From Candidatus Altimarinota bacterium (GTDB taxonomy: Bacteria > Patescibacteriota > Gracilibacteria > UBA1369), in contig JBAZYK010000005.1 in NCBI GenBank assembly GCA_041659405.1, positions 31,796 to 63,795 of the forward strand: DNA of 32,000 nucleotides, in the 5' to 3' direction. The translations under genes and the position numbers were made by a program. Below, one piece after another: positions 2,321 to 7,895 of this stretch (its first letter is position 1; the number at the start of each line of letters is the position of its first letter). Below the pieces are notes generated by a model. It was not told the DNA's origin, ran no database searches, and saw only the letters and a list, made by a program, of their open reading frames with translations.

Positions 2321-2708
2321 GGGCCTGTAGCTCAGTGGTTAGAGCAGTCGGCTTAACACGCACGGAGCTTAACGGAGTGCGGCGCTCGCCAAAAGCGGGC
2401 ATAGCAAAACTCCGAATGCTTTATGCGTTTAGGGCTGCATGGAGAGCGATTTCCATGTGAATTTCTGCCAAATTCGGGGAAGCCTTCTTGTGCACACGCA
2501 CAAATGGTAATCCCGAGCCAAGCCTCGTCAACGAGGAAGGTGTAGAGACTAGACGGTAGATTCCTAATTTGATAAAAATCCTCCCCGGGGAGGGATTACC
2601 AAGTTAGGAAAAGGGATAGTCCAGCTTACAAACCTGAAAAGGGTCGCGAAAGCGATAGTGAGATGCATAACCGATTGGTCGATGGTTCAATCCCATCCAG
2701 GCCCACCA
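2321..2708 (+). tRNA. Intron-containing tRNA with anticodon CAT; tRNA-Ile2 (lysidine type) favoured, elongator Met possible
   Basis: Exon 1 is 2321-2353 (GGGCCTGTAGCTCAGTGGTTAGAGCAGTCGGCT). Exon 2 is 2666-2708 (CATAACCGATTGGTCGATGGTTCAATCCCATCCAGGCCCACCA). Joined, they give a 76-nt cloverleaf: acceptor GGGCCTG/CAGGCCC, D stem GCTC/GAGC, anticodon stem GTCGG/CCGAT, loop CTCATAA, 5-nt variable loop, T arm GATGG-TTCAATC-CCATC, and encoded CCA. The G1-C72 pair argues against an initiator. From memory, the body closely resembles the E. coli ileX-type tRNA. Confidence 0.85.
2354..2665 (+). ncRNA. Group I intron (IC3-like) in the tRNA anticodon loop
   Basis: 312 nt lie between U33 and C34. The 5' exon ends in U and the intron ends in G (omega-G). 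Several stretches nearly match the Azoarcus tRNA-Ile intron core as I remember it: CCAAATTCGGGGAAGCC (2468-2484), CCGAGCCAAGCC (2513-2524), GAAGGTGTAGAGACTAGACGG (2536-2556), and the terminal ...GCGAAAGCGATAGTGAGATG. There is also a long peripheral hairpin at 2561-2610 (TTCCTAA..CCTCCCCGGGGAGGG..TTAGGAA). No ORF lies inside. Confidence 0.8.
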
Positions 2709-7274: not shown

Positions 7275-7895
7275 ATGAAAATAAAAATAGTAGCATTAGT
7301 TTCATTGCTTTTATTCACTGGATGCTCGTTTTCTAAGCAACCTGAGGCGTTTTTGGGTACAAAATTTGGAATGTCATCTGCAGAAGTAGAAAATGTTGTT
7401 GGTAAAAAACTACTAACTGGTGATGAGTATTTAGCTGACGCATCAAATCCAAAGTTTTTTGATTGGCTTGCTAAAAAGTATGGAGCGATTGCAATAAATA
7501 ATGTCCCGCTAGACAAGGAATATGCTGATAGATCGAAGGATTTTTTTATGTCTAGGATAATGCTTTATGACTTTCCGGCAGGAACTGATTTTAATTTTTT
7601 GGACGATAAGTTGAATAATGTTTCTGTCAATTTTGACGTAATGTTTGGGAATGCAGATGACCTACTTGGTAAAATTAAAGAAAGTCTTGAGAAAAATTAT
7701 AAATTTATTGTAAAAGAGGACAGCAAAGATGTGCCTGGAGCTTACACTTTAAAATATCAAAAAGACGATGTTAATGTTGATTTATGGATTAATGCAGTCG
7801 GACAAAATAAATATGTCAATTTAGATATTCATTACCTGCCTTTTAATAAGGCTTATGATGAAGAACTTAAAAAACGAGAGCAGAAAGCTTTATAA
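7275..7895 (+). CDS. Hypothetical lipoprotein
   Basis: MKIKIVALVSLLLFTGCS is a signal peptide with lipobox LFTG|C. The rest is unrecognised. Confidence 0.65.
   Translation: MKIKIVALVSLLLFTGCSFSKQPEAFLGTKFGMSSAEVENVVGKKLLTGDEYLADASNPKFFDWLAKKYGAIAINNVPLDKEYADRSKDFFMSRIMLYDFPAGTDFNFLDDKLNNVSVNFDVMFGNADDLLGKIKESLEKNYKFIVKEDSKDVPGAYTLKYQKDDVNVDLWINAVGQNKYVNLDIHYLPFNKAYDEELKKREQKAL

Follow-up and report, generated by a model that had tools for sequence, protein, structure and literature searches.

Positions 2321–2708 of the 32,000-nt stretch of DNA analyzed here (hereafter, the window) very probably hold a single-copy tRNA-Ile2 gene that is split between U33 and C34 by an IC3-like group I intron of 312 nt, which would leave the transcript by the standard group I splicing pathway and whose HNH gene was either lost or never present. 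Joining 2321–2353 to 2666–2708, that is, taking out the 312 nt of 2354–2665, produced in ARAGORN a cloverleaf of 76 nt with the anticodon CAT and an encoded CCA, in agreement with the original prediction that removing these 312 nt completes the tRNA. The 5' exon (2321..2353, plus strand; ARAGORN and 17 intronless relatives) comprises tRNA-Ile2(CAU) positions 1–33 and has U33 as its last base, the intron (2354..2665, plus strand; RF00028 and homologues in 15 relatives) begins with UAA and has the omega-G at 2665 as its last base, and the 3' exon (2666..2708, plus strand; ARAGORN and intronless relatives) extends from C34, the lysidine site, to the encoded CCA. Both intron ends, a start after U33 (2353) and a final G (2665), coincide with those predicted.

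The original prediction had also proposed an Infernal search with the Rfam group I model and tRNA detection allowing for introns. In a targeted search of 2200–2820 alone, RF00028 (Intron_gpI) matched over its full length (model 1–253) at 2412–2646(+) with 56.2 bits (E 1.3e-13), above the gathering threshold of 50, and intron-mode ARAGORN on the genome called tRNA(cat) i(34,312) at this locus. In contrast, Rfam at the gathering threshold with default filters over the full 32,000-nt window reported nothing at 2321–2708, default-setting ARAGORN over the window detected no tRNA there, and a search of the whole genome with RF00028 listed the intron on contig C16 (see below) alone, and not the one at 2321–2708. 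That default-filter scans miss the intron indicates that its match to the RF00028 model is only moderate, and as Intron_gpI goes unreported on both window and genome, the gene would be overlooked in routine annotation. A sigma-70 and terminator scan around the split gene gave nothing above background.

To the base, the splice sites are fixed by relatives. Using the 388-nt precursor as BLAST query against 40 genomes from its own family and order, we found exon 1 (query 1–33) adjoining exon 2 (query 346–388) without insert in 17 of the 40, and a homologous insert between the two exons in 15; of the remaining relatives, seven were without match and one was ambiguous. The extracted sequences of the uninterrupted alleles read ...TCGGCT/CATAACCGATTG (the slash marks the junction), and in all 17 relatives the junction is exactly GGCT/CATAA. 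In the filled relatives, inserts of 239–651 nt lie precisely between T33 and C34; they begin with T[AG]A in the 11 copies with printed 5' ends, and the last base was G in all inserts checked. As the intronless alleles join exactly at GGCT/CATAA, both splice sites are known to the base, and the presence of empty and filled alleles at T33/C34 excludes any alternative split within the anticodon loop. A split after position 34, 35 or 36 would end the intron in C, A or T and create the anticodon UAU or UAA, and the remaining split combinations would create an 8-nt loop, all of which the intronless alleles contradict; the predicted exon boundary with its CAU anticodon is thereby upheld against alternative folds giving a non-CAU anticodon. 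With the intronless alleles of 17 relatives meeting at the proposed junction, the intron locus is confirmed as real, far beyond chance. Moreover, a copy in a relative of the same genus (G001) has identical exons and the same 312-nt layout at 75% identity over the entire 388-nt precursor, which indicates selection on the RNA fold.

The fold itself was evaluated in an alignment of ten precursors by RNAalifold, which found compensatory changes in 43 pairs, and by counting canonical cells pair by pair. P1 (2349–2353/2433–2437, plus strand) consists of the splice-site wobble U2353·G2433 followed by C2352-G2434, G2351-C2435, G2350·U2436 and C2349-G2437; 46 of its 50 cells are canonical and the helix is present in the MFE fold, the fourth pair being a G·A mismatch in 4 of the 10 homologues. 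Its exon side is unable to covary, since the exon is invariant. The internal guide sequence GGGCUG (2432..2437, plus strand) is unchanged as GGGCWG in all ten aligned homologues and lies exactly 31 nt upstream of the P3/J3-4 string CAAATTCGGGG in 14/14 homologues; beside it, U2354·G2432 forms the intron-side pair. Between the 5' splice site and the guide sequence, the P1 extension and L1 (2355..2431, plus strand) form a rod of stacked helices, among which those at 2358–2362/2424–2428 and 2364–2367/2419–2422 are conserved, with double changes in 9/9 pairs and further inner helices besides. The region 2347–2438 folds with –39.8 kcal/mol (z –3.55).

Downstream of the guide sequence, the P2 hairpin (2438–2445/2450–2457, plus strand; 79 of 80 cells canonical, double changes in 8/8 pairs) is capped by the tetraloop GCGA (2446–2449), which is GNRA in 10/10 aligned sequences. 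P3 (2464–2469/2555–2560, plus strand) is canonical in 60/60 cells and has double changes in two of six pairs. The P4–P5 domain (2473..2517, plus strand) is made up of the invariant P4 (2473–2479/2511–2517; 70/70 cells) and of P5 (2483–2484/2506–2507; 20/20 cells) with its distal hairpin, both on the plus strand and both in agreement with the Rfam consensus, and it is followed by the P6 hairpin (2523..2536, plus strand), with 64 of 70 cells canonical and double changes in all seven pairs. The guanosine-binding helix P7 pairs GACUA (2547–2551) with UAGUC (2617–2621) on the plus strand and is invariant (50/50 cells canonical); its strings GUAGAGACUAGACGG and AUAGUCC are common to Azoarcus and other IC3 tRNA introns, and its 3' strand (2617..2621, plus strand) is embedded in the conserved J8/7-P7 string AAGGGAUAGUCC. 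The long peripheral hairpin which the original prediction had placed at 2561–2610 turned out to be an extended P8 (2561..2610, plus strand), whose basal helix is canonical in 55 of 60 cells with double changes in five of six pairs. P9 is a three-way junction (2625..2662, plus strand) consisting of P9 (2625–2629/2658–2662; 48/50 cells canonical, double changes in 2/5 pairs), P9a (2633–2635/2640–2642; 30/30 cells, 2/3 pairs) and P9b (2643–2647/2652–2656; 50/50 cells, 3/5 pairs), the latter two each closed by a GAAA loop. P10 is weak in the window copy, where C2666-G2432 is the sole possible pair, while in several relatives the alignment permits 3 bp. The group I hallmarks are present, namely P1 with its U·G wobble, the omega-G and a P3–P8 core including the P3/P7 pseudoknot; together with the RF00028 match, this bears out the predicted class of intron.

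From this architecture, a splicing route can be proposed. The exon sequence CGGCU (tRNA positions 29–33) would pair with the guide GGCUG (2433–2437) at the far side of the P1 rod, so that U33 and G2433 form a wobble pair at the 5' splice site. P3–P9 would build the catalytic core, in which the GNRA loops of P2, P9a and P9b probably act as tertiary clamps. A free guanosine bound in P7 would then attack after U2353, whereupon the omega-G 2665 would enter the same site and the 5' exon would attack after G2665, leaving the anticodon loop CU/CAUAA. TilS converts C34 of the CAU tRNA-Ile2 to lysidine, so that the tRNA reads AUA. As the intron lies directly 5' of C34, lysidine formation would have to come after splicing, and TilS modification of C34 and subsequent charging by IleRS would thus be expected only on the spliced molecule. 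The analysis demonstrates the boundaries, the fold with its conservation and covariation, the identity of the tRNA and its single-copy status; catalysis, and the order of splicing, lysidine formation and charging, are what we infer.

A variant of this route, which we regard as rather unlikely, is that the intron, although a true group I ribozyme, depends in the cell on a protein helper (maturase-like or a host RNA chaperone) and would fail to splice by itself under mild conditions. Protein assistance is known for many natural group I introns, and folding could be slowed by the weak P10, the unusually long P1 and the peripheral insert of P8. However, the intron shares its core strings with that of Azoarcus, which self-splices robustly, the GNRA loops on P2 and P9a/b are conserved, and no candidate maturase is present in the intron.

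For the identity of the host tRNA, the genome as a whole (1.51 Mb in 21 contigs, 98.5% complete, 41 intronless tRNA genes by ARAGORN) provides the context. Two of the 41 intronless tRNAs have the anticodon CAU: the one on contig C14 has C1 and, in its anticodon stem, GGG/CCC, both typical of an initiator, and the one on C8 is of the elongator type. The spliced tRNA of the window is identical to an E. coli gene annotated as tRNA-Ile and carrying the CAT anticodon at 64 of 76 positions (84%), as compared to 53/76 for the C8 tRNA, which, when searched against E. coli, gave no tRNA-Ile match. Taken separately, the 5' exon shares 88% identity with E. coli tRNA-Ile(CAT) over 33 nt, with tRNA-Ile genes as its top E. 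coli tRNA matches, and a BLAST search of E. coli genomes with the 43-nt 3' exon gave weak tRNA-Asn matches only. TilS is encoded on contig C6 (178.6 bits versus a cut-off of 93.6). In the 602 ORFs that reach 300 codons or more (translation table 11), AUA has a frequency of 8.9 per 1000 codons; these long table-11 frames, along with the absence of a tRNA(UCA), indicate that the standard code is used in this genome. Besides the split gene, no AUA decoder, including tRNA-Ile(UAU), was found among the 41 intronless tRNAs of this 98.5%-complete genome. The resemblance to E. coli tRNA-Ile(CAT), the separate Met and fMet genes, the presence of TilS and the use of AUA agree with the host tRNA that had been proposed, and point to the split gene as the single-copy tRNA-Ile2 gene, the only one for an AUA-reading isoleucine tRNA. 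Given that this gene is single-copy, that TilS is kept and that AUA is used, splicing would have to work.

It is very unlikely that the roles are reversed, i.e. that the split gene encodes the elongator tRNA-Met (Met.2Ug) and the C8 CAU tRNA is the lysidine substrate. The anticodon CAU by itself cannot tell Met from Ile2, and a Met.2Ug intron described by Williams 2020 (bioRxiv 10.1101/2020.01.27.920355) has a guide, UGGGCU, close to the GGGCUG of the window, together with a similar P9 layout. Against this stand the 64/76 identity of the spliced tRNA to E. coli tRNA-Ile(CAT) and the preference of its 5' half for tRNA-Ile genes, while the C8 tRNA reaches only 53/76 and matches no E. coli tRNA-Ile. 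That the tRNA gene is dead, its intron decayed and non-splicing and AUA read in another way is likewise very improbable: the near absence of P10 in the window copy and the lack of an endonuclease ORF, as expected late in the homing cycle, would be in keeping with such decay, but the 98.5%-complete genome offers no other AUA decoder, TilS is retained and AUA commonly used, all core helices are intact and covarying, and the exons match those of G001 exactly and intronless alleles almost exactly.

Among 300 genomes sampled evenly across the phylum, BLAST detected intron-core relatives in only six others, so the intron clusters in this order. Further holders bear the labels Ca. Peregrinibacteria and Ca. 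Gracilibacteria, and OY782391.1 ('Candidatus Gracilibacteria bacterium') is a relative of the same family. A search of genome contigs with a 15-mer across the 5' junction returned mostly chance matches in unrelated phyla, the intron being present in 5 of 119 loci. One further copy lies at approximately 7327–7812 (–) of JANWYN010000120.1 (L089), a 90-kb contig labelled Chloroflexota with a local GC of 62%, from a 'Candidatus Roseilinea sp.' MAG, and combines a near-identical tRNA-Ile2 with an intron of ~410 nt at the same U33/C34 site. This intron type is thus present in more than one phylum, and the Chloroflexota copy suggests either spread across phyla or a very old association.

The window intron contains no endonuclease ORF, and a tblastn search of the whole genome with the HNH protein of the relatives found no homologue, in line with the predicted absence of a homing-endonuclease ORF. 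In contrast, five relatives with introns of 600–651 nt carry an antisense HNH ORF of 121–129 aa in the P1 loop (L1), for example at L012 1775–2140 (+) and L015 1769–2158 (+), and also in L014, L017 and L019. This ORF matches Pfam HNH with 22.2 bits (cut-off 21.4) and PHROG HNH families with E 1.4e-19; in four of the five copies its frame spans the 5' splice site and terminates at a stop codon supplied by exon 1 of the tRNA, read in antisense. The guide sequence lies 407–414 nt from the 5' splice site in the HNH-bearing copies, versus 46–106 nt in the ORF-less copies and 79 nt in the window intron. The window copy appears to have lost, or never to have had, the antisense HNH homing-endonuclease gene of these five relatives. 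Some cyanobacterial fMet introns possess a sense-strand endonuclease gene (I-Ssp6803I), from which the antisense HNH ORF of the relatives differs. Within the order, every stage of the homing cycle is represented at this single site, namely empty, intron with HNH and intron without HNH, which makes for a clean comparative set.

The tip of P8 contains a perfect 14-bp palindrome (2580–2593), and the segment 2579–2600 is identical in 22/22 positions to C1:101988–102009 and C1:103036–103057, both of which belong to a 135-nt repeat that separates tandem cassettes of PIN-domain genes. A third copy of the palindrome (C1:190228–190241) lies inside an F420-ligase-like ORF; none of the C1 copies found is beside an HNH gene. 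In G001, the relative of the same genus, P8 is short and lacks the palindrome. On the minus strand, the P8 palindrome is terminator-like in score. Perfect GC-centred palindromes of 14 and 16 bp, of other sequences, occur in L013 (G017) and L020 (G006), where P8 is much enlarged. Palindromes in enlarged P8 arms hint at palindromic inserts in L8 at the level of DNA. It is highly doubtful, though conceivable, that such P8 blocks would be DNA-level docking or recombination sites or small palindromic insertion elements instead of RNA features, and that the endonuclease-less introns of this family were moved or remodelled in trans.

At least two further tRNA genes of this genome are split in a comparable manner. 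The only tRNA-Asn(GUU) gene, at C16:8266–8572 (–) (L001 1453–1759 (–)), has a 232-nt intron after U35, which scores 43.9 bits with RF00028, below the gathering threshold of 50, and the gene is wrongly labelled Thr(tgt) by ARAGORN. The core of this intron is of the GAUAACGGUGAAAGC type, like that of Mba143.Tyr.4Ug in the seed alignment of Williams 2020, and the same insertion setting is represented by Pam37.Asn.4Ug (Williams 2020, bioRxiv 10.1101/2020.01.27.920355). In tRNA-Thr(GGU), at C11:53644–53918 (+) (L002 445–719), a 199-nt insert follows U36; Rfam Intron_gpI gave no match even at E <= 10 on 306 nt. Nevertheless, this insert has P1–P9-like helices that covary in five homologues, and in many relatives the gene is uninterrupted. 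The insert appears to be a group I intron that is compact, divergent and invisible to current models. Two other intron calls by ARAGORN, Gly tcc (388 nt) on C15 and Pro tgg (69 nt) on C2, were without group I support and were set aside.

Default ARAGORN and default-filter Rfam miss three tRNA genes (Ile2, Asn and Thr-GGU), and automated annotation of the genome would leave false gaps for tRNA-Ile2, tRNA-Asn and tRNA-Thr(GGU). Apparently missing tRNAs in CPR genomes may often be such intron-split genes. This 1.5-Mb genome would rely on ribozyme splicing for single-copy tRNAs, at least two of which are indispensable, tRNA-Ile2 and its only tRNA-Asn. The interest of the locus lies mainly in these consequences for annotation and in the comparative series of empty, HNH-bearing and ORF-less alleles.

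With respect to known systems, Williams 2020 (bioRxiv 10.1101/2020.01.27.920355) lists four classical settings, Leu.3Ug, Arg.5Ug, fMet.2Ug and Ile2.5Ug, all of which are marked IC3 in a curated database according to the same source. The index 2 denotes insertion after U33, the site of the cyanobacterial tRNA-fMet intron (fMet.2Ug), and the seed alignment of that study includes Gba28.Ile2.2Ug and Sba135.Met.2Ug (bioRxiv 10.1101/2020.01.27.920355). With Ile2 as host, index 2, U at –1 and G at omega, the window intron belongs to the class Ile2.2Ug. The original prediction had presented the U33/C34 insertion as a departure from the Azoarcus paradigm; this holds, as the Azoarcus intron follows U36, but the site as such is known from fMet.2Ug, Ile2.2Ug and Met.2Ug. 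A literature search found no paper on tRNA introns in Peregrinibacteria or Gracilibacteria. The setting, Ile2.2Ug at the classical fMet site, is already on record, and the current understanding of group I introns is unchanged.

As in the window intron, the tRNA-Ile(CAU) intron of Azoarcus sp. BH72/A. olearius (Ile2.5Ug) resides in the same host tRNA species, has near-identical J3/4-P4, P4'-P6 and J6/7-P7-P3' strings, bears GNRA on P2 and GAAA on P9, and lacks an ORF; the three core strings quoted in the original prediction are all present in the window intron, and also in the Azoarcus olearius row (Aol6.Ile2.5Ug) of the Williams 2020 seed alignment. The Azoarcus intron differs in its short P1, short P8 and single P9 hairpin and in a length of 205 nt (PMC13168695) as compared to 312 nt, matching the excess of about 100 nt that had been predicted. 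The extra 107 nt of the window intron are located mainly in P1 (a rod of ~90 nt) and P8 (50 nt). Since the Azoarcus insertion is after U36 and not after U33, the guide there pairs with CAU and not with GGCU.

Gba28.Ile2.2Ug shares with the window intron the Ile2 CAU host, the U33/C34 site, U at –1, the omega-G and a guide beginning with GGGC, but has UAUAUCGGUAAAA at J3/4-P4 and a simple P9 hairpin, whereas the window intron has strings of the Azoarcus/fMet type and a three-way P9. Judged by eye from the printed rows, these different cores indicate that two intron lineages seem to share the site.

The introns fMet.2Ug (Tpc1) and Met.2Ug (Sba135) are similar to the window intron in the site CU/CAUAA and the guide UGGGC(U), in the core string AAAYUCGGGGRA (AAAUUCGGGGAA in the window intron), in AAUCCCGA followed by GCC or ACC, in GGUGUAGAGACU and in the same P9 junction with its GCGAAAGC arm; Tpc1 also has an enlarged P1 loop, and the Leu.3Ug seed rows have the same P9 layout. 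Their host is an initiator or elongator Met tRNA, and that of the window intron is Ile2. By eye, the core strings and layout of the window intron resemble the Williams seed rows of IC3-marked classes, and on this similarity we call it IC3-like. As all CAU tRNAs have a CU/CAUAA loop and a GGCU-type 5' flank, it is plausible that a single intron lineage has moved from one of these tRNAs to another.
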